DNA of 64,000 bases from Ophelia neglecta (Eukaryota): assembly GCA_965285935.1 (NCBI GenBank), contig OZ260667.1, positions 39,928,001 through 39,992,000 of the forward strand, in the 5' to 3' direction. Of the stretch, positions 10,757 through 32,163 are shown piece after piece. Made by a program: the position numbers and the translations under genes. The stretch's first letter is position 1. Each line of letters opens with the position of its first letter. The notes under the pieces are model-generated. The model did no database searches. It had not been told where the DNA came from and was given only the letters and a program-made list of their open reading frames with translations.

Positions 10757-13700
10757 TTATGTGGCCATGGGTTGTGAGAACTCTTCTTCAGATTCACTGT
10801 CATGATATGCTTGTAGCAGCTTGGCACTGGCCTCATCCGTCTTTTCATCCCGAAAGGTCAATGCAGGCGTGCCAGGGGCTGCATAATGGGTAAGGTAGTC
10901 ATCTTCGTAGTATTCTTCATTGTTTTCTAAGGGTCTGAACCCTTTGTAGCTGCGCAGACGTGACTGGCGTTTCTGCTTGCGGAAGCACACCATGATGACC
11001 AGAGTGGCCAGAACCAACAGCATAGCCAGAGCTGAAAATGTGAACTCAACATGAAAGTTGTATTTACCTAGTAGTCACTGGATGCATCAGATAAACTAGG
11101 CCAATGCTGTCGAGGGGCCGACAGTAAGGGGTATATCCGCGAATGCGCGAAATAGTCGATTGGTGAACATGGTATAAGGCGGAGTAGTAAATAGGGTAGT
11201 TTTTAGTTGGCACAACAGAGAACAAGGTAATTTTTGTTCAGGTCATTAATAAAGTAAACAGTTAACTTATTACACAGACTGTAGCAGGTATCATATGACC
11301 TCAATGATAACGCAAAATGACCTTAGCTAATTTTTTTCAGGTCATTAATAAAGTTATGCGGCGGCGGCTTAGCACACATGTTCCAGTAGGTTCCGTTTGA
11401 CCTCAATAATAATACAAAAGGACCTTAACTAATTTTTTTTAGATCAGTAATCAAGTTTACTAGTTAACTTATTACACAGATTGTAGTAGGTTCTAATAGA
11501 CCTCAATGATAATGCTAAAGACCTTAACTAATTCTTTTCAGGTCATTAATATAGTTGGTTCCATATGACCTCAATTATGCAGCAAAACGACTGTAACTAA
11601 TTTTTTTCAGGTCATTAATAAAGTTAACTAGTTAACTTATTATACAGATTGCAGTAAGTTCCATATGTTGTCTGGACTTTTCGAGTGGGCACCAGTTCGA
11701 GCGGTGGCTATACTGGTCTTAAACAGACTGATTTGGAAATGAAATAACAGCATAAATATGCGCCAAACTTGTGCAAGTTCAGTAATATAGCTACATTACC
11801 AAGATTGAAAGGCTCACCACCTATTTGACCAGAATCAAATCAGTTCCTCCTCTCAATAAGGTCTATGGCTGTGTCAAATTTGAAAAAGATGTACGAAATG
11901 TTTTTTGAGTTATCGGTGGCGCTACTGATTCCATAATATCCGCATTTCGCAGATATAATTACACAACTCAGAACTACTGGAGTTCCCTGAGAGTAAGAGT
12001 ACCCAGTTCTATGGTCATAAAGGATGGAATGGACTCCAGAGGTGTTTCTACTATAATTGACTTACCAACTACTATCACCACAATTTTAGGAGATATGCCA
12101 AGTAAACTCTTGTCCCGTTTTAATGCAAAGAATTCAACATGTATAGCAGTTTGTGGATTTGGTATCACAATTTCCTGAAACAAAAATAAAACATAAAAAA
12201 CATTACAGCAACAACATTAGAATAAACAAAAGTAACCTGAAGATGTCATATTAAAATTAAAGGATGTTCCATTACAAGTTGCACTAGGATGTGTGTTTAA
12301 TTCATCACAAACCTTGGTGATGTCTTGGAAGTTTTTAGCATGCACCCTCAAACTGTATTTTCCTGGAAGGAGGACACGCCAGAAGTATCCATCCTCTGTG
12401 GTGTGCACATCGCTGAGATGGCCACTTACACTTATGGTAGCCCCTTCTATGGCCCACCCTTGTTCATTTGTAACTCTGCCCTTCACACCACGGTGAACCT
12501 GGAAACAACAATAACACCTTTTTTTACTAATGATAATATGCCAAGCTGAAAATGTATAAAGAGTTAGGATATTTCAGAACCAATATTAACATATAAGAGA
12601 TATTTGAGTCCCTTGGGTTTAACCAACCTGTCTAATGGTTTCCAGCAAGGCATGGCTGTTGTCATTCCATGCCTGAGCCAGGCTGCTGTCATCAATGTAC
12701 ATGCAGCAGCCGGTGTATACACTCAACTCCAGAGTGTGGCCATACTGATAACCCCAGTCCTAGAGTGGGAACATAAAGGAATCATAAACACCTGCCAGAG
12801 TAAAGTATTTTCAAGAACCTTGGTAGTGGCAGTTGTGTACAGATGCTCAAATAAGGCTGATTGGAATTTTTGACCATTTAATGAGCTTGTAAATGTAAAA
12901 ATCAAAATTTGAATATAAAGTTACTCTATGTGTGGCAGTGCAATCTAATTCCGGGCAATAAGCCACTCAGCAGAGTTTGAGGCAGTCTGAAGCCACCTAC
13001 CTGAATAGTGCCTGGCTTGTTCTGCCACTTGGCACCATTGACAATTCCTCCAGTAAACAGTTCTCCTGAGTAATGAGAACATAGGTGGATGTAAACTAGC
13101 ATGCCATATCAAATTAAATGGGGATGTTTAAGAGATGATTGCACTAAGAGGTCATTTTAATAGACTGGAATATTTATTTTGTGCATAAAACCTTCCCCTA
13201 ATCCTGATTTACACTCGTACATAGCTCTGTTATCCAGAATTCTTAATTACTGTGAATCCCTATACTGCTCAATTCCGAATTCCCCCAAAATCCACACAAC
13301 GCTTCTACTTTTTAATGGAACAGTCCTTATATGGTTAACTTTAAAATCATTTTACCAGTTGCTTTGCATTGGAGGCCTTGCATCATTGTTGGATGGTTTC
13401 GGGCATATGTTTTTGCCAGATGCTTGAAAACAGCATCATCTGGTGTAGTGGTAGAACTGTTCACCAAGCCACCTGAAATGATAATGGACATATAAACGGA
13501 TAAAACCTCTATTAATGAGTTTATTTATGAGAGGTTTCCTCCTATGTGAGTTCACCGGCTAGATTCTACTGTTGGCTACATTGTTCTCATAAACCAGGCA
13601 TACATTTTAATGTACAATGAACATGTATTCACAGATTCAAATAATCATTGCCTTATCAAAAGAGTACTAGATACCTTGATGATTGTAAGGATACACTGCC

Positions 13701-16700
13701 ACCAAGGCTCCTTGACGTAGGTTGATAGACAGAACAAAGTCATTATCTGTCATCCACTCTGCCAGGGCTTTGACTTCAGGTGGAGCAGAGGAGTTTACCA
13801 AAGCCTGAGGTGTATCTGAGAAAGTGAAAAAATAAAATATCAAAACCATGAAAATTAGGTGATGCCTGTTGACTTGGTTGGGACTTGGCCCCCACAAGCC
13901 TTGCTGTACCACCACCTAGCTCAATGATACAAGTACCTCTACCATTGTGCTACATCCACATCCCTTGATGGATGATTTTAATGGTGCATTTTTTCATGGC
14001 TACTGATTAATTCTTAACAACACATTTCAGTAAACTGTACAGCTATGAAAAAGACATAATAATATCAATAGTTAAATATTTATTGCCTTAGCAAATCCAT
14101 GGGGTCATAAATATGCCGTGTAGGTATTTTACCAATAAACACTGAATCCAAATCGATCCCGTTGGCATTAGTCTTTCCTTCCTCGCCATTACAAGCTCCT
14201 AACACACCCTTCTCTCCTCCATCGGGATTTGCAGATGGCATGATATGGATTCTGGTAGATTTCAGCAACTGGTAATGTTAAAAATGAGAATTTTATGGCA
14301 TGTTTTATGCTCACTTACTACTGATGTGTTCCATAGTTAAAAAACTATACTACTTTGGGAGTATACTGCTTTATACTGATTAGTTGCAGTTTCTTGCTAA
14401 CTCTGTCATGCATGAACTAGTTGATTATGCCCATCTGCTTAGGGTTGATATATACACCTATAGCATTGAACGATGAAATACAAGCAAAAACTAAGACATT
14501 ATGAACAATATAGGCAGTCAATGACAAATCACATTTGGTCCTAAAATTTTCTTTTCAAACAAACTAAACTTACTTGGGAAATAGAATAGTCTGGTTGATA
14601 CTTAGTACAGAGATCCCAGATGAGTTCCAGGGCTAACTCTCTGCCTACGTTCTCATTGCCATGGATGCCTGCAACAATTTTAACCTGGGGAATACCCTTG
14701 TCTGATTGGTCAGCAGCACTGATCTCCATCACCCACAGTTCACGACCTTCTACAGACTGACCAACACTAGGAGAGCAACAAAAATGGCATTTGAAACATA
14801 TTGTAAGGAACAAAAAAGAATGTTATCTATTTTTTCTGCACTGCAAATTATCTTATAATGGTTAGTCTGGAGAAAGCTGACTATTTCCTGAAGCACATGA
14901 CAGCTTCACCATTCATTGGTGTGTTGGCTTTGAAATCAATAGTTATGGTCTTAAAACATTCACACAAACCTGTAAAGTCTGGTCAATTCTGGGTAACTAG
15001 TAGAAATATTGTGCAGTGCAGCTTCCATTTTGTCGTAATTGTGATAAAGGATTGATGACACCTCTGTCTGCAATGTGAATGTCACGCTGCTTGTAGAGTC
15101 TTCTGACACCGAGACAGACTTGCTCTGACTATCAAATCCTGAAGATAACAGATTGCAAAAGGTCTAAGATTAAGTCAGTGGTAACTAAGTTATACCAATT
15201 AATTTTTATCCAGTCTAAACCATGGAAATTCACTTTTTTAGCTGAATTATTAAAAGCTGAAGAGATTAGCCATCACAGGTGTGTTAGTAAAGTGCCAAAG
15301 GCAGACCATGGTCAGCCTCTGTACCTTTAGCTGCTGCGGTGAAGACGTACTCTCCAACAGCCATGATGCGGAAAAAGCCGTGGTCTTGGGGCACGGTGAT
15401 TTGATGTTCAAAGCCTGCAATGTCCACAGAGGCACTGCTCAGGTGTTTGGAGTCCATGTCAACAACATGACCAATGACCCCTGAACAAAGTAAAACCATG
15501 TATTTGAATGTAAAAAAAAGCTGTAGCACAACTGATCTTGAATGTCAGGCTTATTGCAAACCATACTCAAGGCCAGTTTAAATAGAAACATGACCTTATA
15601 ACCCCTGTGTCTGGGATTTAATCACCTTGTTGTGTCTTCTCTATCACTTTCATCAAGGGCTCCACATTATCCATCCAGATTTGAGGCAGATTTTCTGCAT
15701 TGGGATTCTTGCAACAACTTACTTGGGCTGTGACCTGAAGTAAATTTATGTACAGGTTAGTAAGGTTAAATTAATTTGTAATATTTACTAAGTTTGCTTT
15801 GGTTGCTAGTACCAACCTATGATTTGGTACTATCAACAGTATTTTGTTGGAACCAAACCAGGCCTGCAACACCCTAACTTTGGCTAACCATGTCAAAGGA
15901 TATATAAATTTAATCCATCAAAATAGGTTCTGTTAACTGTTATATTTAGGATGCAAACTAACTGTGCATGCCAAGGAAAAATTACAAACCATAAATGTTC
16001 CATGTTTGAAGTAGAGGAAGTCAGGGAGAAGTCCTGTTTGGTCTGTTATTTCTGCCCCGTGGTGTATTCCAGTCGGAGCCCTGCTTCCACAACCACCCCC
16101 AGCTACAATAGAGGGGTGGGCTTCAGCATAGGCATGAGACAACATACTTAGGGTGTCTTCGTCTTCCGTCTTAAAGGACTTGGCTCCCAAAGAGTTGCGT
16201 ACTGCATGGTTTAAAGGATACCTGAAATCCATTTATGACCGACTTAGATCATGAGAACAACATAAAATACAAACTTAATAGTATCAGGATAACATATTTT
16301 GTTACAAGAGACATTATTCCAGATTTAAGGTGAAGCAGAAGCCTTAAAATACTGGGCAGAACAGTAACATTCTTGTGATTCTTAGACCCACAGAATTATC
16401 TTTACCTGACCATCAGTCCACCTGATCCTAGGCTTAACACAAAGTGGAATTGTGTTTCTGTAAAAATTCTTTTGAGGGCAGCAACTTCCACAGGCGTTGC
16501 CATGCTAGTGGCACTCTCACCAAACTGGTCAGCAAATCTCTGGCCAGTATACTGATGTCCAGAGCAATCCCCAGGAACAGCAAGCTTCAATCCATCAGGG
16601 TTCAAGGCAGGTATAATGTGCAAGTTGATTTTCTCCAGAATTTGTCCTAACCTCTCATCTTTCAACTCATGCCCTGCAATACAATGGCAATCAAAGGGGA

Positions 16701-19700
16701 CTCTCCATTCACTGATGTCTGTTTATCTACCATATATTATTATTCAATCATTATACATGTACATCTTATTTTGATATAATATATCAGTGTGCATCTAAAA
16801 ATTGGTAATTTCTGTGGTTTTCTGGGTTATAGACCAAAATGTTTAGAGGACATCGATTTTGTACGGATTTGCTGAAAGTTTGGATAAACAAGGTTTGGAT
16901 ACGAGGGATTGTACTGTAAATGTCAAGGTAGGTTTAATGTCTTATTTAGGTTAAGCCTGATTTCTATATGATATTTACCACCTGGCACATGGTCAGATCC
17001 TTCTTGGGCCATTTCAAACCAGTGAGTAAATTACAACAACAGTCAGCTTATAGCCAAGAACGTAATTATCTAACCAGTACCCTCTCATGTCCTGGGTCAA
17101 AAGAGATACAATCGCTGGTAGGCTAAGGCCCAAGGTCAAGGAACCATCAACTGCTAAGCTAAGGCCCATTGTCAAGGAACCATCAACTGTTAAGCTACGG
17201 CCCATTGTCAAGGAACCACTTACTGTTTGGCTAAGGCCCATGCTCAAGGAACCACCAACTGTTAGGCTAAGGTCCATTCTCAAGGAACCACCTACTGTTA
17301 GGCTTAGGTCCATTCTCAAGGAACCACCTGCTGTTAGGCTTAGGTCCATGCTCAAGGAACCACCAACTTTATCTGCTAGGAAATGATCCATTGTCAAGCT
17401 TCTTACCCACCAAGTCACAAAGTCACTTTATAAATAGTACCAAATCACCTACCTTTGATAATGTGTCTTATGAACCTGACCAGAATCTCAGGACCCACAG
17501 TTTCATCACCTTCTAAACCTCCCAGGAGGAGGCAGTTGACTTTCACAACTTTTGGTTTTGGACTGGTCAGTTTTATGCCATAGAATACATCTCCTGAAAA
17601 CAGGGGATTGCTTTGTGATGTAACAGTAATTATGCACTACATATTCCCTTTTAATGGTATTGATTTTCAAACAATTATGATATGCTGAAAAATATAGTAA
17701 CTTGTGACAAAAAATCTAGATCTCGTGTCTGAATTTGCCCTTCAGAAAGCACAAAACCATTGATCTTTCTTATTGTCAGTCACCCTATTTCAAGCCACTT
17801 ACCACTGGTTGTCTGATAGGAATCCATTAGACTTGCCACATCACTGTTCTCATTGACAACCTCCCTAATGTAATCACTGATTTGCTCTGAAGTCATGTAG
17901 GAAGTCTTTTCCAAGTTTTCTTTGATATTAAAATCTTCCTGCATTGACCAAATCTCCAAGTCAGCAGGCTGCAGGGTGAAATTGGTAAGAGTGGCAGCTC
18001 CATCTGTCACAACAACTGACAGGGTTTGGCTTGTATACCTTCAAAGATAAAAACTAGATGTATATCTCTAATGATGTGTCCCACAACATGTACAACAGTA
18101 TTTACACGGACACCACATTAGTTAATATGAGCATTCCAGCACTATAACACACATGTAGCTAATCATTGATAAACCCTAGGGATAATTCACTAGTGATGAC
18201 CTCCTGCCAGTCTACTGCCTTAGTGCCCATCTTTAATACATTTATTAACTCTACTTTTATTGGGTTTTGAAGCAAAGACGAAAAAGATTTTTTCATTCAA
18301 TATATAGTTCTAGAGGGTATTCAGCACATGGGACCCTACACATATAAGTCAAGATATTCGACATACCCGTCCTTAGAGGCAGTTATGCTATAAGTGCCTG
18401 GCACCAGTAGACGCCAGTAGTCGCCAGTGGCTGCTGCAGTGATATTATGGTTGATACCGGCCACATTGATACTGGCTGTTGGGACTGGTAAACCTGAAGT
18501 GGCATCTATTACAAACCCCTTCACTCCTTTGTGGACCTGGGCAAGTATGAATTGACATGAATTTATGAATAGAAAAAAGAAGAGTACTGTCCACCCATTT
18601 GTTTTATTGGTCATATTAAAGAAGAAAAGACAGACTATTTTCTGATTGTATTAACTGTAAACCACATGCTTTTAACATTCTTAATGAAGGTTTACATTAC
18701 CAAGTGCATAATCAAATAGTTAATGTGACTAAAAACCCTTTTTGGATAATTCATAATAGAGAATATGTGAATTAATTCCAGAATACATATTTTTTCACTC
18801 TGCTGTGGCATATCTACTACAACTAACCTTAACCATTATATGTATTTACACTATAAATTCAAATCATATTGACAGATATTAATGCTAATACCAATAACAA
18901 TCATTTCTAAATGCCAAATTTCTACATTGGTTTGTTATCATTAGTAACAACACACCAATTAACAGGACTGGTAATTAAGAGCCACTGTATTGCTTACCTG
19001 TCCCATAAATACCAGGAGGGGATATTTATTGGCCTCCCAGAATGAGGGTAACTGGGTCCCTCTGGGATACTTCACACAGCCCAGCTCTATGGTCAGCTCA
19101 AAACAGTTACTGTGTAAGTAGTTCCAATCCTGCATACCACCTACAAAACCCATCGTAATATTAGCGGGTATGTCAAGCGGATCACAATCAAGCTCTTATT
19201 TTTGCTTGTCAAATTGGAGAGGAAAAAATGATATTTTAACCCAGGGAATGAATGGCACTTTAACTCTTGCATGGAATTTTTATTACCATATTCTAAACAA
19301 ACTGAACAGAATAAAGCTTTCATTTGAAAGAGAACAAATTTTTATCATCTGGGTACTAAAGGCTTCTAAAGAATTGAGTTACGGTAATAGTGGTTGTCGG
19401 TAAGTATACAATATCTAATATGGCATGTACAGGGTATATCTGAGGAAGGCCACGGCTTCACACTAACTGAGAGATTAGGAATACAGACATTAATTTCACG
19501 AATCTTATTACTAAATCTAACTTGATACACACTGTACACCTTGTTCAAATTGGAGTGAAATATAGTGTCCCATTTCTTACCTGCTACATTATACCAGTGG
19601 GCCCCATTGGTAATGCCATCTTTAAAGTAATCCTCCCCCATGCCAGTGCCAGCACACGCATGGCCAGAGTGCATTGTAGAGTGAGCCTAAAAGGTAAATA

Positions 19701-22700
19701 ATACACATTTTATCATTTCAAAAACAATTGGCGACAGTGAAAGGCTATAAACTGATAAACTCATAAACTGAGTTTTCAGGATTAATGTTGCCGCCAATCT
19801 TCAGTTTTTCTTCTACAGGTAGTATGCAGTTATCCCTGATGCAGTCCCCTAAAAGACTCCTCATAGTTCATAATCTGTGACCTGGAAGATATTCATGTGC
19901 TATGTACAGTGGTCCCTGTGATGTAGGTTCTTTTTAAATCCAAGGAAAGTGTCCCTACATTGCAGGTGGCCCTTTGAGATACTTGAACATGGAAAAGATA
20001 GGACATGGAAAAACTGTCCTGCATGCACAGGTGGCTCCTCATTTGAAGGGCTTACATCACAAGGACTACTGAACACTGTTATAGGCTGTATATATAATCA
20101 AAAAAAGTCATACTCTAGCATTTTATTATTAAATAAGCCAGGGCACATGTTGTAACAAGAGTAGGAGCAAAGGTGACCCCCCACCCACCCTCGTATATGT
20201 TAGATTAGGGACATGAAGCCCATGGTAAAAGAGTGTCTGATCAGATGAGTGTAACATTACATATTTCCACCCAGCCAAGCCTTGATCCCTAGCTAAGAAG
20301 CCTGAAAGTCTAAAGGCCTGCAAACAGAAAAAAAAAATCTCTGCAGAACTCATTACCTCCATTGTCTACTGCATGGCACCATGCCATGCGATTATATCCA
20401 GGGCATTGCACAGTATTGACAGAGATGTTTCATTTTAAAGATCTTCCTAGAACCTTTATCCATAGGTTCTCTTATGCATATTGGGAGAAAAAAAGCCAAG
20501 AAGAAGAAGGCTGTTTAATCTTTTTTTTTCACAACTAAGAGTTGTTAGACTTTTATGGAACCAAACATTTCTAACAATGAAATAAACAGGCAAATAAGAT
20601 GAAAAAGAATGCAATAATTAAAGAGTACTGCCTATAAATTGTGCTAAATTTACATATTTTACCCAGTGAAAAAAAAGGCAGCATACAATTTCAGTGATAT
20701 ATTTATAAAAAAATTTAGCAGATTAATGTGTTTCTGATAATAATAGTACTGACCGGATTTATTTGTGTTATTTATATTTGACAATTTAAACATATACTTT
20801 GCTAAATTTATTTGATTGTAAAAAATTTGCCAGCCTAGGTGAATTTCAAATTATGTGTACACCACTCACCAGCGAGTAGGCCTCTGCCAAGGATTTGAAG
20901 GTAACATCGTCAGGACACTTGCTGTAGGTTGTATGACCAAGTTTGGTGTCATCATATGGATAATTGGCGACGAGGCTTCCTCCGTGGAGGTTGGCAGACA
21001 GAACAAAAGGGTAGCTCCTAAATGTAAACCAAGCATGTGAAAAAGTCTAATGTTTTACAGGCTTGTTCTTCCTGTCCAGAAAACTAAATTTCTTGAAGGG
21101 TGTACAATATTAAATCTTTATTCCAAAGTACCCTAATCCATACTGGCGGCTTATCTTTAATCGTCCATCTTACATGGACGAAACTGAATATGAATGTGTT
21201 TAAGATTCTATTTAGGAGGAGAGTCTATTCAAACCTGATCCAGTCCATGATGAGTAGTGTTTCCGCTTCCTGGTGATTGTTCTCATAGTAAGTCTTATAC
21301 TGATCAGGAAAGTTACGGTTCAAATCTCTTCCATTGGCATTAGCTCTGCCCGTCACACCCTGGGCGTCACCTTAGGAATCCAACAGTCCCAATGAATTCA
21401 TGAGTTAATTTGAAAGTCCAATCTTATTATACCAGGTATGCACTAGTGAGCTGTAGAGAGGATGAGTATCTAAGGGATGCACAACCATGACAGGGGTCAC
21501 TCTGGCAAAAATTTGTATGAGAAAAAATATCCCATGGAAAAGTTCTATGAGATTTACCTGCTTATTTGTTTTTGATTTGGAAAAGGCCTACCAATAAACA
21601 TTGTGGAGTGCTTAAGTATAGTATATTGAAGTTGCAAGACAGAGTAATATTTTACGGCATACAAACTTTTGACATGTGATTATGGGAATTTCAATGCGAT
21701 AATATCGGGATATCACAGCCTAGAGTGATCCCTGCCATTGCCCTCTCCTTAAATGATTATTTCAACATTTGGTATTTTATTCCCACCTACCTTCATGAGC
21801 ATGTGCATAGCCATCTGGATTCATCGTTGGCATGAGATGGATTCTGGTCTGATTCACCATTAGGCTGATCAAAGCATCCTTCCCATAGTTCTCACACAAG
21901 AGCTGGGCCAGATTTACCAGCAGGACCCGACCTACTACTTCATTGCCATGCATATTAGCTATGTATTTGAACTCCGGCTCACCTGGAAACAGACATTTTG
22001 AAAAAACTTAATGCTATTGTAATCCACAATTTTTGCAAGCAAGAAAATTTCACAGATCACAATATTATTTAACCACATAGTTTCTACTTGACATTTCTTC
22101 CATGAGCAGGAGAGAAAGTTTTTATCTAACTTTCTATGGAAAGTTAGGCTATATGGGAAATCATACATTGGAAATTCTGCAAGCAGGACTTTTCTGCTAA
22201 TTTTCTCAATTATCTTGAAATTTGAGAAAATTTTTGCTTGCAAAATGTCCTGATTAGAGTCGTACAAGCTCTGTGCTGACAATAAAATATACAACAGGAA
22301 CAAAGCACCTGCTCTGCTCTTTGGTCACCATCTTAACAGTGATTGTCCAGTTGTGCTGAATATGTGAATATAATTCAGTCTGTGCCTTTAGCACTAGTCC
22401 AAAGCACGCAGACTGGTGTACGGGGAAACTTTTAAACTAAGACCACCGATGGGACTGGAGAATACTGGTCTGATTTTGGAGGTGACCACTTTACACAGGT
22501 TAATTACCATTTAAAGTATACAGCAACATCGTCATTTTGTTGGTCTGAATTGACAGGTGGTCTGATTATAGAGGTGGTCTTTAAGGCGGGTGTCACTGTA
22601 CATATATTTATTCATGCTAGTGTAGATTCAAATGCACTAGCCCCGACTGGACCAGTGCCTGTTCAGTACAGACACATAAAACCTGGAATATATCAAAATG

Positions 22701-25700
22701 TCCTCATTTCCCAATTTACTTTTCTGAAATATATGAATTAATTCATGAAGCAAAGGCTACAGCTTTTTGGGTTAAATTAAGACTTGTGTCAAATATTTTG
22801 GACTAGTAGCATTTCAATTCTACTAGCCTGAATGACCGGTGGGTACAGTATATATATATATTTGGCACAGTCAGAGTGCCTCAAGTGCAAGCGTATGTAG
22901 TTTCATGCTATTACTGTGTTATTTGATGAGAGTAAAAAAAAATTTAAAGGATCAAAGAAAATTTTATTCCTAAAATGAAACCATATCTTCTGAACTGATG
23001 GACTTAGTGGTAATTGTTTTCAACAAGTTTCAATGTATTTTTAACCCTTCCCCTACAGAGGCTTCAACTAGTAACTCACTACTTCTGGAATTGAATCCAG
23101 AAGGAAATGGTTAATGTGATACAATAATACTGCAAAATTACAAGGGGAATCACAAGGTTACTACCTTCGCATAAAGGAAGGAGTTAGTGCTAACCTGGCT
23201 CATGTTTGCCGGGATTGTCCGAGATCTCGATTACCCACAAGTCCCTGCTCTTTACCGACTTGCCGATGGAATACAGTCTGGCTATATTTGGATGGGCATT
23301 GGCAATCTCTTTCAAAGCCGCTGTCAGTTCTTCATGGCTTAAGTGTTTACTATAGGTGGGTTCCTTAAACATATCATAACAAATGTATATCAGACCAGTA
23401 AAGTAATCTTGGATACCCCCGGTACATATATATATAGAGTAATACCAAGGGTGTTCCTTTTCAAATTGAGCTTGTGGGCACTTTCTGTACAGCAGAGAGG
23501 GAAAATGACAAGTGCCACAGTCTGTATCCTTAGCAAGGGGCTTGAGTTGCCGGCAATTAGTGTAATTACAGATTGATTAAATCTCAGTCGCCAGCAGCAA
23601 AGAAACACCCTTAATAGCAAAATACAGGACATGTGCTGGAACAAACTTTTAGTGGAAATAATCAAGCCATTTTCTAATAAAACATTGCCCGTGGATTACC
23701 TTAAATGATATTGAATTGCGATGTGCATGGTCTTTCAACTTGTTGATAATGTCAACCAAGCTCTCGGCAGGGTGTTTAGGATCAAGATCACTAGCAAAAG
23801 GATATGGTGATGTTGAACCGATTGGCGCTGGAGAGGTGGACTGAGATATTTTGGCAGTGGGAGATAACCGTGGTGTGCTTGAGCTTAGGTTGTTGGATGG
23901 CACTACATTCTCATTGTCATCTTCAGAAGTCTCATAGTTACTGAAAGATAAGCTGCCTATTAGGGATCATTTTGACCTTGAGGCCTATTTCTCATAATAC
24001 AAAAAATACTGAACTTTGGCAGTTAATGCTATACATGCAGGCATAGAGAAAGGGCAATACATAATAATTATGGCATATGATGCAAATACAATACATTTAG
24101 GAGACAATTCAAGTGACACAGTTATTTAACACAGTTAAACCATTTCCTAAACAGATTATATATCTATTACATATTTTTTCCCGACTCCAACAGTTTCCAT
24201 GAGGGAAGGGTTAAACATATCACAAATTTACTGGGGTACACACTGTAACCATCAAGACTGCAATGCAGTAAAATGTAATATGCTATTTTCCCAATGTTAT
24301 CTTTTTGTTAGAATGACTCCTTTTAGAATATCTTATTTAGAACAGTAGAAAAAACATACTTGTTTACTTCATCAAACCATAACACTTACTGAAGATAACA
24401 TATAAATGAAAATAACCTAACTTTAAACCTAACTTGACTTTCTCGCCTCATTGAGAATGGCAGAAAGTTTTGCATATCGCCTGAAATCACATTTCGAAGA
24501 GCAGAAGCTTTTTTTGGAGCATCCGGTGATGCAAAGTCCAATATTTGTGGGAACGGTGCTTCGGATCTTAGTTGTAAAAGGGGTTTGACTCTCTGCTGTC
24601 GCCGTTGACGAAGGAGAAATTCAAGCACAGAGTCTCAGCAAATCAGAGACCAGCATTTTGAGGTGTGGTCCCTGTCAGCCAATAAAAGCTTCTGCATGTG
24701 AAAACGTGATTTCATACCAGCTGCAAAAGCCATTCTCAATGAGGCATGAAGGAGTACTAAAACCCGACCATCCATCATTGTACGGTAAAAAATCAGTAGG
24801 TGTTCTACCAGAGCAATGTACAGGAAAATGTTTGGAATAAACAATAATCTTGCATTGTTTTGTAGCTCAATACTAAATAATTTTGACATAAAAGTTAGGT
24901 TTCCTAGTTTTGGTTTTAGTAAAAATCTACTAGGTATTTCACTGCCCGGTCTGGTAATGTTCAAACTATTCCCGACTGCAGATCTGGAAAAGTTCATACC
25001 TTACTGGACCATTGGTCTGGTAATTTCAAACTTTACCATTGGTCTGGTAAGTTCAAAATTTACCCAACCATTGGTCTGATGCGTTGAACCACCCACTGGC
25101 CTGGTAAGTTCAACCCCACCTGACCATTTGTCTGGTTAACCACAATCTTAAAGTTACAAACTGTAATAACCAAGGTAACAAGATTAAAGGTATATTCCGA
25201 AAGAAAGGTATATACGCACGATAATACGATATATACCACAATATAATATTTACTGTATAAATTTAAAACAGCATAGGAAATGCATATAACGTCCTCTTTT
25301 ACTATTTACATGATTTATGCTTACCTCCTTTTTCTCCGTGTAAGCTTTTGAAAGCTTGGAGTATATATAAATGTTCGCATATACATTATGGAGTATGGAC
25401 CAAACACATTTAATATGACATTCAATTTATCTTTATTCTGAATTAAGCCCTGATAATTAAACAACCATCTATAATAATAATATTAAATAATAATACTAAT
25501 AATAATAATAATGATAATAATCAACAAAATATTTCATATTTGATACATCACAAATAATATCAGCTTAAAGTACCCACCCATAAGGAAGCTCGCCATATTC
25601 ATCCCCAACTTGATTGAACACTTTCTTTTCTCTTACAAGGGGCTCTGAACCAGGCTCAATATTTTCTCGCTGTTCTAAGTGAGGACCTTTCTCTCCAAAT

Positions 25701-28700
25701 TTAAACAGTTCAAAGGAAACAAGAGTAGGACCCTTACTCTCCACATAAATATTACTTCTGGTAATAGGCAAATATCTGGAACCATGTGGAAAACATTATT
25801 AGTTAAATGTAATAATTATCAGCCACGAGTACTTAATACATAAATCATTTCTTTTGAATCATCAATGACATACAGGTAATGTAAATTATATTGTATACAA
25901 AAGTTGGCTATATTTTGATCATGAAGAAGACAGTGAATTACACTGAATTTTAATAAGATTAATCCTACCCTGGGGCAGTTACAGTGACTGTGTAAATGCC
26001 TGGAGTAAGTAGGCGCCAGTAATCCCCATGTTTTGCTGATGTCACATTATGATTTATTCCATACACAGATACAACAGCTCTACTGATTGGCTGACCTGTC
26101 TCGGCATCACGAATAAAACCTTTTATCCCTTTGTGTACCTAAAAGTAGTATAACGGCTTTAGATATTTTTCAAACTGCAGAATATCTAAATGTGTCTGAT
26201 CATTAACAGAGTGGTCTCCACGACAGTTAACTACTGTAAACCGGGAATTGTTCGTGGCCGTTTTAATTTTGCTATGTTCGCGATAAGGGTCCAACCGCGA
26301 AATTAATAGGAGGGAATTTAAAAACCCTAATCTGAAGATCAGTGGCCTGATCTGGTCCGCCATTGCTGTTACAAATATAGCGCTGAAATCAGCGTGCTGA
26401 TGGACAGGCTGTGTAGCTTCATTGATTGCACTTACAGTGCGATGATAGAGACTTGTAGAGAGGTGCAAAAACATAGCCAGTAATCTTATGTGGTGGTTTT
26501 AGTTGGTTTTATGACTGATTTAATTAGGCGGCGTGAGAAACTGACGACAAAGCGAATGATATTCAGCTTCCTTACACAATTGTTGTTCATAGCTACACTT
26601 CAAAGACTGGCTTAATTTGGTTTAATTGAGTTTTATTTTTTTATATTTGAGGAAATTGTATTTTGGCTTCTCTTTATGACAGTTGTTGTAGTTTCAGACG
26701 TGAGGACTCGATCACAGTTTTTGCTTTGCAGGTGCGATTCCTTCCTCGCACCTCGCTAATAAACTTGCTTGTGAGCACAATTACAATCGGCAAATTCCGG
26801 GTCCCGGTAACATTGAATTGTAATCAAGTCTCCGCAGGCGGGCTCCCCACGCTGGCCGTGTTGCACACGGCGCGCTTGGCGCTACGCTCGAGACGTCTCT
26901 CAACGACACATGATGTAAGGGCATAGCGCTCTGGAGAGCAAACAAAATGGCGGCCATTTTCGGCAACTCGGATCGCTAAATTAAAACAACGCGAATAGAC
27001 GCAGGAAGGGGAAATCGCGAACTTTTAGCGCCGCGGAAATATTGTGATTTACAGTACCATTGTAATCTTATAAAATATAATAATAATAATAACAATTATA
27101 ATATTAATAATGATTTAGCTTGTATATGGCACTTACCTGTTCAATAAATACCAGCATTGGTTCTTTATTTTTTTGCCATTCACCATCTAGCTCAATGGCA
27201 GCAGGATATTTACAGCAGGAAATTTCCAGAGTAATTTCAAAACAATTACTGTGGACATAGTTGAAGTCTTGCATTCCGCCTACAGTACAAGGAACATAGA
27301 CATAATCAACATTTCTAGGCTCATGGAATTACTTCATAATACTAGTAATTTTACTACTCAATTAGATAAAGGATATACCCAAAGTCCCTAACAGGATATT
27401 AAGGTGGGACCTCTACAATGGCTATTAGATATAAAGTGGTCTCATTGGAATCCTTAAGTAGCAAACAAGTAATTTATGTCATCATACATAACGTTCATGC
27501 ATCTTGTTTACATACAGCAGTCTTTCCACCAAAAATATTGACTTTATTCAATTTTTTGTGTAAAAAAATGCAACTTTTTTCAATCAGCCTATTCTAGAAG
27601 ATGGTCATACAGTTTTTTTTAAATCCTATCCTAAGTTGTGTTTTTGGGGCCATGATGAAACTAGTCATCAAATAAAGTACTCATGAGTGTGAATTAACCT
27701 TTACATGCCATTTAAAAATGAATAAAAAGGTGTTTTAAAATTCTGGGCTGCCATCACCTAGAACTAACTGCTGCAAACAGTTTCCATTTTACAGAATTTA
27801 ATCATCACAATATTTGACTGCGATAACTCGATTGAAAAATTGTGTATCAGTTGTAATTAAGTAAAATTAAGATAAATGACTGGCCGACTGGGGCTATTTA
27901 ATTTCATGACCAATGTCTTTTTGATTTAGCACCTATTCTAATACAGTACTAGTATGTGGTCTGAAAATTCAGAACACAATTATCTTTGATCTGTAAGAAC
28001 AGTAAATTTATGTTAAGCAAAATTTGTAAACATGTCTAGTGTTCCTTCAAATTGGGCAGTATTTGTGCATGACATAACCAAAGTGACAAATTTGATATTC
28101 TAACTCAACCTTAATTAGAGCCAGACATTAGGTGCCCTGCTAGGGGGGCATTTTTTCAGCCACATTGAAAATGAACTCGATTTTAGAATGCCGTTATGAA
28201 ACACAGGGTTGGCAAAAAGCCGGCTAATATGAGTATTAGCCGGGCCGGTGGTTAAAGCCGGTTAAAGCCGGCTTTTCATGGCCAATTCTTGGAGACAATT
28301 AACCAGGCTGGATAATTGGTTTATCTAAGGTAGTTTTGTGTACTGTTGCTGATCTCCCATTTATTAACTGTTTATCTAAGGTAAGTGTATGTACTGTTGG
28401 GGATATCTCATCCAAGTTTGCTAATTGAGTTAAAGAGTAATCAAAGTAAACCAACAAATGCCAGTCGTTGCAGTGTCTATTCTGTCTAGGTGTGATTAAC
28501 ATGCTATTTAGGTGGCTTAGGTAGGCTGGCCAGCCTTGTGAGTAACACCTAGTCTCTACTCTTAGGACTAGCAATCTACTGGTCGGCAAGTTATTGACTA
28601 TTGGTTGATACCCCAGAGCTAAATTGTGCAACAAACAACCTGTTAGTCACTGATCCATGGAGGGGATGGTCCCTCACCCAACAAGACAGCTAGCTATTGG

Positions 28701-31700
28701 TCAAAGCTGAAAGTGTCACATACATTAAGAACTGGGCTTATTAAGTTTAGTTGATCTATCCGACAGTCTGTCCTTTGCAAGCAGCCTGTACAGAGTTACT
28801 ACTTCCAAGTCTAAACATTATATTTTCAAAATGAAACCTAAAGACCCTATTTGGGGATTCTACACTCTTTGTGAAAGTGGAGGCAAAACTACTGCAATAT
28901 GCAAGGGCTGTAGTTCAGAAGTTAGTGCTAGAGCGGTGCAACTTAAGACTCACCAGGGAACCTGTTCAGCAAAAGATGAGCTTAAACCTGCCAAAAAACG
29001 ACCACTGGAAGATATTGATATACCATCAGCTATATGCACACCAAGCATGCCAGAACCCAAGCGACCCAAGCTACTGCAGAAAGAATTTACTGCATTTGCT
29101 GTGACTACTTTTCCTGCAATGAACAAGTGGCTAAAATGTTTTTTGCTTGTAACATTCCCTTTAATGTTGCAAATCATCCAGATTTTAAGAGAATGGTTGC
29201 GCTACTAAGACCAGGGTACCAGCCCCCCAACAGGAAGAGATTAGCAGGAGACTTGCTGGACAAAGTACACATTAATATAACTACAGAAATGAAAAGTGAA
29301 CTGAAGGGCAAGAATGTCACAATGATTCAGGATGGATGGAGTGATGTTCATAACACCCCTGTCATAGCAAGTACCCTCCATACTGGGGATAAATCCTACT
29401 TCTTGTCAGCAGTGGATACTGGGACTAACAAGAAAACTGCTTCCTACTGTACATCCATAGCACAAGATGCTTTGAAAGAGGCTGAGGATGGAATGTACTG
29501 TTACTGCTGTTGTAACAGACAATGAGAAGAAAATTGTTGTAATAAGAACCAATCTGAAAGAGAATAATCCAAACATTACAGTCTATGGATGCTCAGCACA
29601 CATGCTATATATCTCCTTGGTCAAGACATAACCCCTTCCCAAGTCATGTGTCAAGTGGTTGAAATCAACAAATACTTCCGGAATCACCATGTGCCTGGAG
29701 CCTTGCTGACTGAAATTCCCGGGTCTTTAAAACCACAATTACCTGCTGTTACAAGATTGAACAGTCAAATGAAGTGTGTTGAAACATACTTGAAAAACCG
29801 CCCATACATGTAACTCATTGCTGCTCAGCATGAGGAACTGATAGATGAGAGAATAAAGAAAATCATACAGAATGCTGGCTTATTCAGTGAAGCTAAGAAC
29901 TTGTATAGTCAGCTTGAACCAATCACCAAGGCACTGAACACCCTTCAGTCTGACACTGCATCAATGGCCGATGCTTGTGAGGTGTGGCTACAACTTTTGA
30001 AGGAACCATCACTCGAACCATACAAGGATAAGGTGCTAAGGAGATTCAAACGAGCATTGACTCCTACACATATGTTGGCCAACTTGTTGCACCCTCAGTA
30101 CAAAGGACAAGGCATGGATGTAGATCAACTAAATGAAGCCCAAGAAGTGTTGGTGGCAAGGAGTCCTGAGTGTATGCCAGAACTGTTGAGTTACATGGCT
30201 GATAATTTGCCTCTGCCCAAAGCCATGTTGCTTGACACAGCCATCAAAAACACTAAACCAGCAGTGTGGTGGAAGTGCATTCTCAAGACAGGAGCTGTGA
30301 ACCCTGTGCTGTGTGATATTGCACTCAAATTGTTGGCCATGCCTGCCAGCTCAGCATCTGTGGAAAGAATATTTTCAAATTTTGGTTTTATTCAAACCAA
30401 GCTTCGAAACAGACTGGGAATTCATAAAGCTGCCAAGCTTGTGGTATGCTACAGGTTTCTACGTGGAACTGAGGAACTTGACTGGTAGCAAGTGTCAGAA
30501 CAAAAAAGCTAGTGTGTGACCCTGGCTGTTTAATTGTAAGTGCATTTCCAGATGTCTGAAAGTGGTGACTTTTCACTATATCAAACACTTTCCCACACTT
30601 TTATGGATATTGTGCTGCAAACAAAGCTGGACTATGTCTGATATAGACCAATAAAAATACATGTAAATATGTTTGTTAAAAATTGTTCTGCAATATATTA
30701 CTACAGATTACATTGATAAGCTGACATTGATTAATTTAATGTTCTGTAATAAACGAAGTTTTTAATTTGGCATGAAGTGTTTATTATTCCATTATAAATA
30801 ATCAAAATCACCTAAAATAATATAGCTTAATTAACAGTATTAACCTTATTAGCCAGTAAAAGCCATCAAGGGTTGGTGATATGTGTGTTTGTCCCTTCCC
30901 GAGACTAAGCATGCATGCCCGCTCTTTTCAGCGTTGATTTGCACAGAGAATGACAGTGACAAGAGAGCATACATCAGAAAAAGATAGCAGCCTGATTTCT
31001 TGACTACCAAAGTATCCCAGCATGCAGCGCAGTCTTCCGTTTCTTGTCAGATGGTGCTAACATACACGCTATATCTGGCCATTGCATTATTGGGGGGGGG
31101 GGGGGAGATTTGCCATGTGTGTTTAGAAATGAAAGGTTTACCTTGGGAGAATTGTTACATGACCAAAAAAAGGGGTCCCTCTGTGTAAGCGGGGACTTGG
31201 TATGCATGTATATATGTAATAGCACTGTAAAATGTTAAAGTAATATTAACCTACTATAAACAATATTATTTTTTGAATTATCCTACACAAATGCCACATA
31301 CCTATTACTTCATACCACTCATTTCCATTGGTGATACCATTTTGGAAGTGTGCATTTCCACAAACTGTTTGCTCATGCATAGTGGGATGGGCCATTGAAT
31401 ATGCCTTAGAGACCTGGTTAAACACAGCTTCATCTGGGGAGGTATTTGCTGTTCCATGTTTAGTATGATCTGGGGAGTCATCATAAGGGAAGTTGGCAAC
31501 TAAAGACCCTCCATGAAGGTTGGCTGATAGTACAAATGGATTCAACATTATCCATTTCATCAGAGCCCTTGTTTCTGGCTGAAAATTGTGGCAATCTTTT
31601 AATTGTTCATGGAGGTCTATAACATCATCAGGCTCCTCAAACTGATCAGGAAAGTTACGATTTAAATCACACTTGTTCGCATTTCCTCGGCCATCCACGC

Positions 31701-32163
31701 TAGTGCAGTCACCCTCTCGTGAGTCCTCAAATCCATCAGGATTCATTGAAGGCATAATGAAGATGTTTGTGTGATCAACAAGTTTTTTTACTCGGTCATC
31801 AGTCTCATAGTTAACCAAGAGATATTCAGCCAAGCGTAACAGCATTTCCCTCCCAACGGCCTCGTTGCCATGCATGTTGCCTACATATTTAAACCATGGT
31901 TCGCCAGGCTCTTCAAAACGAACATGGTCGCTTATTTGTATTGCCCACAAGTCCCTTCCTTCGACGCTTTTTCCTATAGAATGCACCTTAGCTAGAAGAG
32001 GATACCGATTTTCGAGATCGCTCAAAAACGCTGTTAGTTGGTTATAGTGAGTGTACTTTTTGGTGTTAAGTGTATTAGATGGACTTAATGCACGACCACA
32101 CCATGTCCACGAAAAACAAACATAAATGCTTAACCAAAACATCAGAATATGTGTCGAATCCAT
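10757..32163 (-). CDS. CPD: Carboxypeptidase D (M14B), four CP domains, type I membrane protein, 28 exons, ~1780 aa
   Basis: Exons in transcript order: 31302-32163, 27137-27279, 25969-26138, 25578-25775, 23700-23940, 23195-23363, 21791-21982, 21235-21370, 20870-21017, 19581-19686, 18998-19140, 18367-18536, 17803-18038, 17453-17593, 16406-16673, 15990-16221, 15626-15734, 15325-15480, 14970-15138, 14574-14766, 14133-14268, 13675-13815, 13356-13472, 13001-13065, 12628-12759, 12313-12498, 12066-12174, 10757-11031. All introns are GT-AG, phases are consistent and the total is 5343 nt. The protein has a signal peptide; HGNE, DLNRNF, NLHGG and the catalytic Glu in domains 1-2; four transthyretin-like subdomains (e.g. 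GDYWRLL); a TM helix; and a cytosolic tail with an acidic cluster (DSESEEE). Confidence 0.95.
11095..11957 (+). mobile_element. Helentron/HINE-like element (copy 2) in the last CPD intron
   Basis: Same 5' end and satellite monomers. The 5' subterminal TATATCCGCGAATGCG is an inverted copy of the 3' terminal hairpin ATATCCGCATTTCGC(A/G)GATAT. Confidence 0.75.
17120..17370. repeat. 36-bp minisatellite, ~7 copies, in a CPD intron
   Basis: Unit AGGCTAAGGCCCATTGTCAAGGAACCA(T/C)CAACTGTT, which produces 12-aa periodic ORFs on both strands. Confidence 0.92.
22418..22600. mobile_element. Small TA-flanked MITE (Tc1/mariner-like ends); related copies at ~19904-20088 and ~35963-36144
   Basis: Ends read TAC(A/G)G...AAGACCACC and GGTGGTCTT...CACTGTA, with internal inverted similarity. 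Confidence 0.5.
24445..24745 (-). ncRNA. Putative structured intronic RNA element (long rod with three-hairpin multiloop), unassigned family
   Basis: 17-bp perfect closing stem GCCUCAUUGAGAAUGGC/GCCAUUCUCAAUGAGGC, then 7-, 14- and 12-bp helices separated by a bulge and symmetric loops, capped by three hairpins. Five G-U pairs exist only on the minus strand. Confidence 0.5.
24945..25140. repeat. Degenerate ~27-33-bp minisatellite, ~7 copies
   Basis: Recurrent CCATTGGTCTGGTAA(G/T)TTCAAA core. Confidence 0.75.
25325..25354 (-). CDS. Candidate 30-nt alternative CPD microexon encoding (G)FQKLTRRKR(S)
   Basis: Minus strand reads TACTCCAAG|CTTTCAAAAGCTTACACGGAGAAAAAGGAG|GTAAGC. The donor is strong and the phase 2-2 matches the flanking exons 25578-25775 and 23700-23940. 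The AAG acceptor is weak, but AAG is also used at three constitutive CPD introns. Confidence 0.45.
26232..27056. mobile_element. TA-flanked non-autonomous DNA element (TACTGTAAA...TTTACAGTA family) in CPD intron 2
   Basis: Imperfect TIRs TACTGTAAACCGGGAATTGTTCGTGGCC... and ...CGCCGCGGAAATATTGTGATTTACAGTA around a CpG-rich interior. A shorter relative lies at ~7846-8047. Confidence 0.6.
28204..30864 (+). mobile_element. Defective hAT DNA transposon in CPD intron 1 (antisense to CPD)
   Basis: Left end CAGGGTTGGCAAAAAGCCGG with AAAGCCGG subterminal repeats. The transposase is split over ORFs 28831-29208, 29034-29525, 29589-29813 and 29901-30488 and shows a BED zinc finger (IW..CKGC..H..C), the catalytic QDGWSD motif and the hAT dimerisation motif [12 protein letters not shown]. 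Frameshifts and an in-frame stop are present; no matching right TIR was found. Confidence 0.88.

Follow-up and report, generated by a model that had tools for sequence, protein, structure and literature searches.

A candidate 30-nt microexon that would add a furin-type site after domain 1 of an annelid carboxypeptidase D

Carboxypeptidase D (CPD) completes neuropeptide processing after convertase cuts. The CPD gene in the window, a 64,000-nucleotide stretch of the Ophelia neglecta genome, raises the question of whether splicing could decide if the first of its catalytic domains stays on the membrane. A preliminary description had recognised, in the intron between exons 4 and 6, a 30-nt stretch that would insert a furin-type RRKR site into the linker between domains 1 and 2. 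The sequence makes it probable that this stretch is a real exon. That it is an optional microexon acting as a regulated cleavage switch of annelid-type CPD is a more tentative reading, which we place somewhat short of an even chance.

The host gene and the candidate stretch

The gene (Table 1) encodes four tandem M14 catalytic plus transthyretin-like repeats, located by tblastn, and Pfam families PF00246 and PF13620 match the domain 1 exons. A hydrophobic run followed by a basic and acidic tail can be read by eye in the last two exons. The zinc-binding motifs, judged by eye against the M14 motifs, are kept in domains 1 and 2 and altered in domains 3 and 4. The protein is sister to Capitella CPD with a support of 1.0 (34-sequence FastTree), and no second CPD copy or paralogue was found in the genome. 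Convertase genes are present, with P_proprotein-domain matches at eight places in the genome.

Two further features of the gene may be recorded here. The catalytic part of domain 1 lies almost wholly in one 862-nt exon (32163-31302, minus strand), whereas the corresponding part of domain 2 is spread across five. A KR pair (residues 1682-1683; 12174-12066, minus strand) stands just ahead of the transmembrane segment and could permit shedding of the whole ectodomain; KR at the equivalent position was found in 0 of 24 lophotrochozoan homologues.

Table 1. Positions, in the window, of the CPD gene and of the features around the candidate exon
Feature	Position	Strand	Basis or remark
Entire CPD gene: 1790 aa, four M14 repeats; 29 exons, the candidate counted	10757..32163	-	
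Exon 1: N-terminus resembling a signal peptide, and catalytic domain 1 (Peptidase_M14) with its zinc-binding motifs	31302..32163	-	
Exon 4: last part of the transthyretin-like subdomain of domain 1, first part of the linker; phase 2 at its end	25578..25775	-	
AATAAA inside the 223-nt upstream intron	25432..25437	-	weak: also in 12/26 other introns
AG-free zone, 74 nt, upstream of the candidate acceptor; TGC at -25, weak TRAY branch-like word at -34	25357..25430	-	
Candidate acceptor AAG: very weak at -0.4, against 0.9-11.9 for real acceptors	25355..25357	-	splice-site matrix
Candidate microexon, 30 nt, phase 2-2, ten added residues with RRKR before Ser	25325..25354	-	frame and borders read; exon status inferred
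Candidate donor GTAAGC, mid-rank, score 8.35; 12/27 real donors lower	25319..25324	-	splice-site matrix
Exon 6: linker, first acidic and then rich in Ser/Thr/Pro, and lophotrochozoan helix motif ahead of domain 2; phase 2 at its start	23700..23940	-	
Final two exons, encoding the transmembrane segment and the cytoplasmic tail	10757..12174	-	

The candidate stretch has AG/GT borders, a length that is a multiple of three, no stop codon and phases that match those of exons 4 and 6, and with it included the 1790-aa frame of the gene model stays open. By this model the coordinates, borders, length, phase 2-2 and translation of 25354-25325 in the preliminary description are correct, which confirms an exon-shaped sequence and not its splicing. 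The residues that would be added are FQKLTRRKR and Ser, with RRKR occupying residues 464-467 when the exon is included. Its identification as a proprotein convertase motif holds good, as RRKR followed by Ser matches the furin/PC cleavage consensus R-x-K/R-R (passages of PMC11266112). It is the sole R-x-K/R-R motif among the 1790 residues and falls in the one long linker. The domain 1-2 linker without the candidate contains no KR or RR, and R-x-K/R-R in the luminal linker comes only from the candidate optional exon. Two other choices of splice site were read from the sequence and rejected: an internal acceptor at 25345, giving a 20-nt exon, and an alternative donor four bases inside the upstream intron lead to a frame shift or an immediate stop.

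We infer that the exon is included in some cells and that its inclusion is regulated. With the exon skipped, the four-domain CPD would remain a single membrane-anchored chain. In the inclusion form, furin or another, related convertase of the secretory path would sever the chain behind the last Arg. Domain 1, some 440 residues long, would then become soluble while domains 2-4 stayed membrane-bound, and CPD/CPE activity itself would remove the basic tail of the freed domain. Inclusion would in this way allow domain 1 to be cut off the membrane-anchored remainder, as had been supposed.

Another route to a domain-1-only form is possible in the same region. Reading through the exon 4 donor (25577-25400, minus strand) meets a stop after three codons, then an AATAAA and a GT-rich tract near 25408, and intronic polyadenylation after exon 4 could give such a form, as in insects. 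The AATAAA counts as weak evidence, because it recurs in so many of the other introns (Table 1).

The introns of the gene also hold high-copy repeats (24360-24810 and 26170-27080), where contig depth is hundreds-fold over background, and a 27-nt tandem unit (25008-25064). Inside the 4-kb intron 1, antisense to CPD, lie broken transposase-like ORFs (28729-30488, plus strand), putatively of the hAT family.

Exon shape, motif and acceptor against chance

An A-rich intron ahead of a decent GT could read RRKR by accident and never be spliced. We consider such a pseudo-exon unlikely, although it is the most serious rival to a real exon, and the shape of the candidate does little to dispel it. Donor and acceptor matrices were built on the 27 other splice-site pairs of the CPD gene, with thresholds taken from the candidate itself. 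On the acceptor matrix the candidate is weaker than 27 of 27 real acceptors, which makes it the weakest in the gene. Both of its scores are reached by five stretches, the candidate included, per 16,064 intron bases of the gene, and three of the four others share its intron. Simulated introns contain a mean of 1.8 equally scoring stretches (150 simulated intron sets), and 77% of the sets contain one or more. Twenty arbitrary genome stretches, unmasked and together 400,000 bases long, yield 140 look-alikes, counted per phase, equivalent to 0.19 expected in the candidate's 1637-nt intron. Exon shape alone is therefore within chance. Two of the competing exon-shaped stretches, 25146-25120 and 24756-24718, lie in or next to intron repeats.

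The motif is harder to account for by accident. R-x-K/R-R occurs in one of the 140 genomic look-alikes, so that about 0.003 would be expected in the candidate's intron and 0.027 over all introns of the gene; for KR/RR the count is 9/140, or about 0.012 expected in the intron. Simulated look-alikes give 0/272 and 5/272, respectively. Exon shape and furin motif together exceed local chance, but these odds overstate the case and are discounted, because the thresholds were set after seeing the candidate and the candidate had been chosen for its motif in the preliminary description, out of a very large scan, a circumstance that favours the accidental reading.

The region upstream of the acceptor also departs modestly from the ordinary. 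Its 74-nt AG-free zone exceeds those of all 27 real acceptors (10-60 nt) and is attained by only 5 of 864 intronic AGs. A zone of at least 74 nt is found in 1/140 genomic look-alikes, which, like the equally rare furin motif, speaks against an accident, although the local chance of such a zone is 0.07 because the intron is 78% AT. TGC near the acceptor is commoner, being present in 29/140. The acceptor tract has 11 pyrimidines in 20 positions, a low value where real acceptors have 10-18, and the upstream intron is short (223 nt).

These properties invite comparison with the neural microexons that depend on the eMIC domain of SRRM3/4. The strict length limit for a microexon is 27 nt, which the candidate exceeds at 30 nt. 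The eMIC-type traits present are a weak 3' site, a long AG exclusion zone and a UGC near the 3' site, each modestly unusual alone. Fly eMIC-dependent exons are described as having a weak 3' site, a long AG-free zone and an upstream UGC, and the candidate resembles the class as a frame-keeping short exon with a very weak 3' site, an AG-free zone, a UGC and a short flanking intron (passages of bioRxiv 10.1101/2021.02.24.432780). The UGC is not a strict requirement for eMIC exons (passages of bioRxiv 10.1101/2024.09.17.613571). In contrast to that class, the candidate has its UGC at -25, and neither a strong CUAAY nor a long UC-rich tract. It is not assigned to the eMIC/SRRM class, because no strong CTAAY branch point and no long pyrimidine tract were found at its acceptor. 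The weak acceptor, AG-free zone, TGC and short upstream intron would nevertheless suit a neuron-biased control of the eMIC/SRRM type.

Variation within the sample bears on constraint. Three DNA runs, all from a single sample that may be the one assembled, have even depth over the introns and contain no splice joints, which counts neither for nor against inclusion. A second haplotype, represented over 307 nt by a contig (contig 20, 25162-25468), differs from the window by five substitutions and a 7-nt gap. Three of the five substitutions lie inside the 30 nt, in one codon, and change Thr to Gln; one is at -9 and one is downstream. Both splice sites, the frame and RRKR are retained. The Gln codon creates an internal AG, the use of which as an acceptor would be out of frame. 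The haplotype is mildly against strong constraint, because the candidate itself has changed and a new internal AG appears, and the triple substitution is a point in favour of a pseudo-exon. The second haplotype also has a one-base insertion at 23942, in the pyrimidine tract of the exon 6 acceptor.

The domain 1-2 junction in other CPDs

The preliminary description had looked to lophotrochozoan CPDs for a basic cluster at this position. Of 120 listed proteins, 114 were used. Those set aside were three decapod isoforms that duplicated others, a shark protein with a different architecture, a fish model that was a fusion, and one unnamed protein. A lancelet model whose linker could not be delimited also dropped out, leaving 113 linkers. 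The counts are not independent events, because the species are related, and the group of the unnamed proteins was guessed. A KR or RR is present in 15/29 lophotrochozoan linkers (shuffle mean 8.0, p 0.0025) and in 4/19 of those from ecdysozoans (p 0.011). The figures for cnidarians (4/6) and invertebrate deuterostomes (4/10) are not significant, and fish have none (0/49). The enrichment is peculiar to domain 1: among invertebrate CPDs, KR/RR falls within 12 residues past the last strand in 21/64 for domain 1, 2/64 for domain 2 and 1/64 for domain 3, while for domain 4 the count is 2/52, or 6/58 with a second anchor. The expectation is thus borne out for lophotrochozoans as a group and for domain 1, but not for the two annelids or the exact position. 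No KR or RR was found in the linkers of Capitella and Owenia, the two annelid homologue models, and the basic pair of the relatives lies within 12 residues of the domain 1 end, with the candidate RRKR some 50 residues farther on.

These counts cut both ways for the idea that the candidate is a real but constitutive small exon, which would put the site in every transcript, as does the KR/RR inside a larger exon of many mollusc and decapod CPDs, and would make domain 1 always cleavable, with no switch. The skip form would be without a linker KR/RR whereas about half of lophotrochozoan linkers have one, as a constitutive exon would explain; yet the other 14 of the 29, both annelids among them, do without the pair, and so weak an acceptor would be unusual for a constitutive 30-nt exon. 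We regard constitutive inclusion as distinctly improbable and retain the optional exon as the preferred form.

The same junction is a place of splice variation. Inserts occur there in 5/21 protein pairs, comprising 4/9 isoform pairs and 1/12 further pairs, some of them between species. Isoforms of Pecten and Mizuhopecten differ by a 9-aa insert between Gly and Ser at the junction, Littorina has a 4-aa insert, for which codon logic excludes a shifted GT-AG site, and the decapods Macrobrachium and Cherax show differences of 173 and 210 aa. For the scallop inserts codon logic permits a cassette exon as well as a shifted splice site. In oyster, a model that runs into the intron has Arg in place of the Ser of the spliced model, a difference that suggests phase 2 there too. 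Three molluscs have short annotated inserts at the junction, but no furin or convertase site was found in any homologue insert there, nor any clear resemblance to the candidate. That the candidate sits at the one junction where relatives show both basic pairs and splice variants is a further argument against a chance pseudo-exon.

The mollusc inserts also bring in the possibility of a real exon whose RRKR gives no effective cleavage, owing to shielding by O-glycans on nearby Thr/Ser or to domain 1 staying bound to the other domains. Such an exon would do no more than lengthen or charge the linker, a role that the scallop and periwinkle inserts may have as well. The absence of a convertase site from the inserts of all three molluscs fits this idea, as does the APOER2 exon 7B cleavage product, undetected in vivo according to passages of PMC7410921. 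However, the candidate provides a complete R-x-K/R-R with Ser, in an open linker, in agreement with the consensus (passages of PMC11266112), and we consider an exon without effect on cleavage to be quite unlikely.

Close relatives were sought more widely. None of 78 candidates matched the linker exon at E<=10. HMMER against 1.84 billion proteins gave two matches, one of them a 153-aa relative (P0182) that starts downstream of the candidate site; a metagenome scan gave 22 loci with no close relative among them; and a near-length search gave one 67%-identical exon-1 fragment that ends ahead of the linker. P0182 continues unbroken across the junction that in the window holds intron 23699-23364, which suggests an intron loss or gain.

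Other isoform differences, in the protein pairs P0047/P0154 and P0034/P0152, lie elsewhere in the protein. Ruditapes CPD isoforms swap a 31-residue segment in domain 2, likely through mutually exclusive exons; three-frame translation of intron 20869-19687 of the window revealed no duplicate exon of this type. In Babylonia, the X1 isoform carries an extra 9 residues, also in domain 2. Mollusc proteins only about 410 aa long were considered as short CPD isoforms and rejected, 5/6 pairs being unmatched to the long CPD of the same species.

Splice-switched cleavage and the proposed release of domain 1

The use of splicing to switch cleavage is a known kind of control. In APOER2/LRP8, human exon 6B (mouse 7B) is a tiny cassette exon (13 aa) whose added furin site releases the N-terminal portion of a type I membrane protein in soluble form, as the candidate would; its inclusion is low-level and brain-regulated (passages of PMC7410921). 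APOER2 is a receptor for which inclusion and in vitro cleavage have been shown, whereas CPD is an enzyme, considered here from its gene, and no homology is claimed. The PAM linker exon has about 100 codons and a Lys-Lys site, and it separates two different activities, whereas the CPD candidate separates tandem carboxypeptidase repeats. What the two share is a peptide-processing membrane enzyme in which an optional linker frees, or in CPD would free, a soluble monofunctional N-terminal enzyme (PAM-1 versus PAM-2; PMC2289459).

For CPD itself the nearest parallel is in insects, where short isoforms of CPD/silver in Drosophila and Tribolium give, from the same gene, the same anchor-less product with a single active domain (passages of bioRxiv 10.64898/2026.08.05.742955). 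The insect product comes from a short transcript, whereas that of the annelid would arise by cleavage of the long protein, with domains 2-4 left on the membrane. Anchor-less CPD forms have been proposed to reach secretory vesicles as CPE does (passages of bioRxiv 10.64898/2026.08.05.742955), and CPD domains 1 and 2 differ in pH optimum and in Arg/Lys preference (passages of PMC5683605). No report of a CPD microexon or of a cleavage site after domain 1 was found in the literature covered, which was largely open-access. Switches of this kind are known from APOER2 and PAM, and for CPD none was found reported.

Release of domain 1 might even be a general, unreported trait of invertebrate CPD, achieved by short transcripts in insects, by a built-in KR/RR directly behind domain 1 in many molluscs and decapods and some cnidarians and ambulacrarians, and by a neural microexon here, although we consider so broad a generalisation doubtful. 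The junction-specific KR/RR of invertebrate CPDs, molluscs and decapods among them, does not depend on the fate of the candidate exon. On the broad reading, neurons of this annelid would obtain from the CPD gene a soluble CPE-like enzyme that works at neutral pH and prefers Arg. An exon of ten residues that decided whether domain 1 remains anchored would give individual cell types a compact control over peptide processing, much as in PAM.
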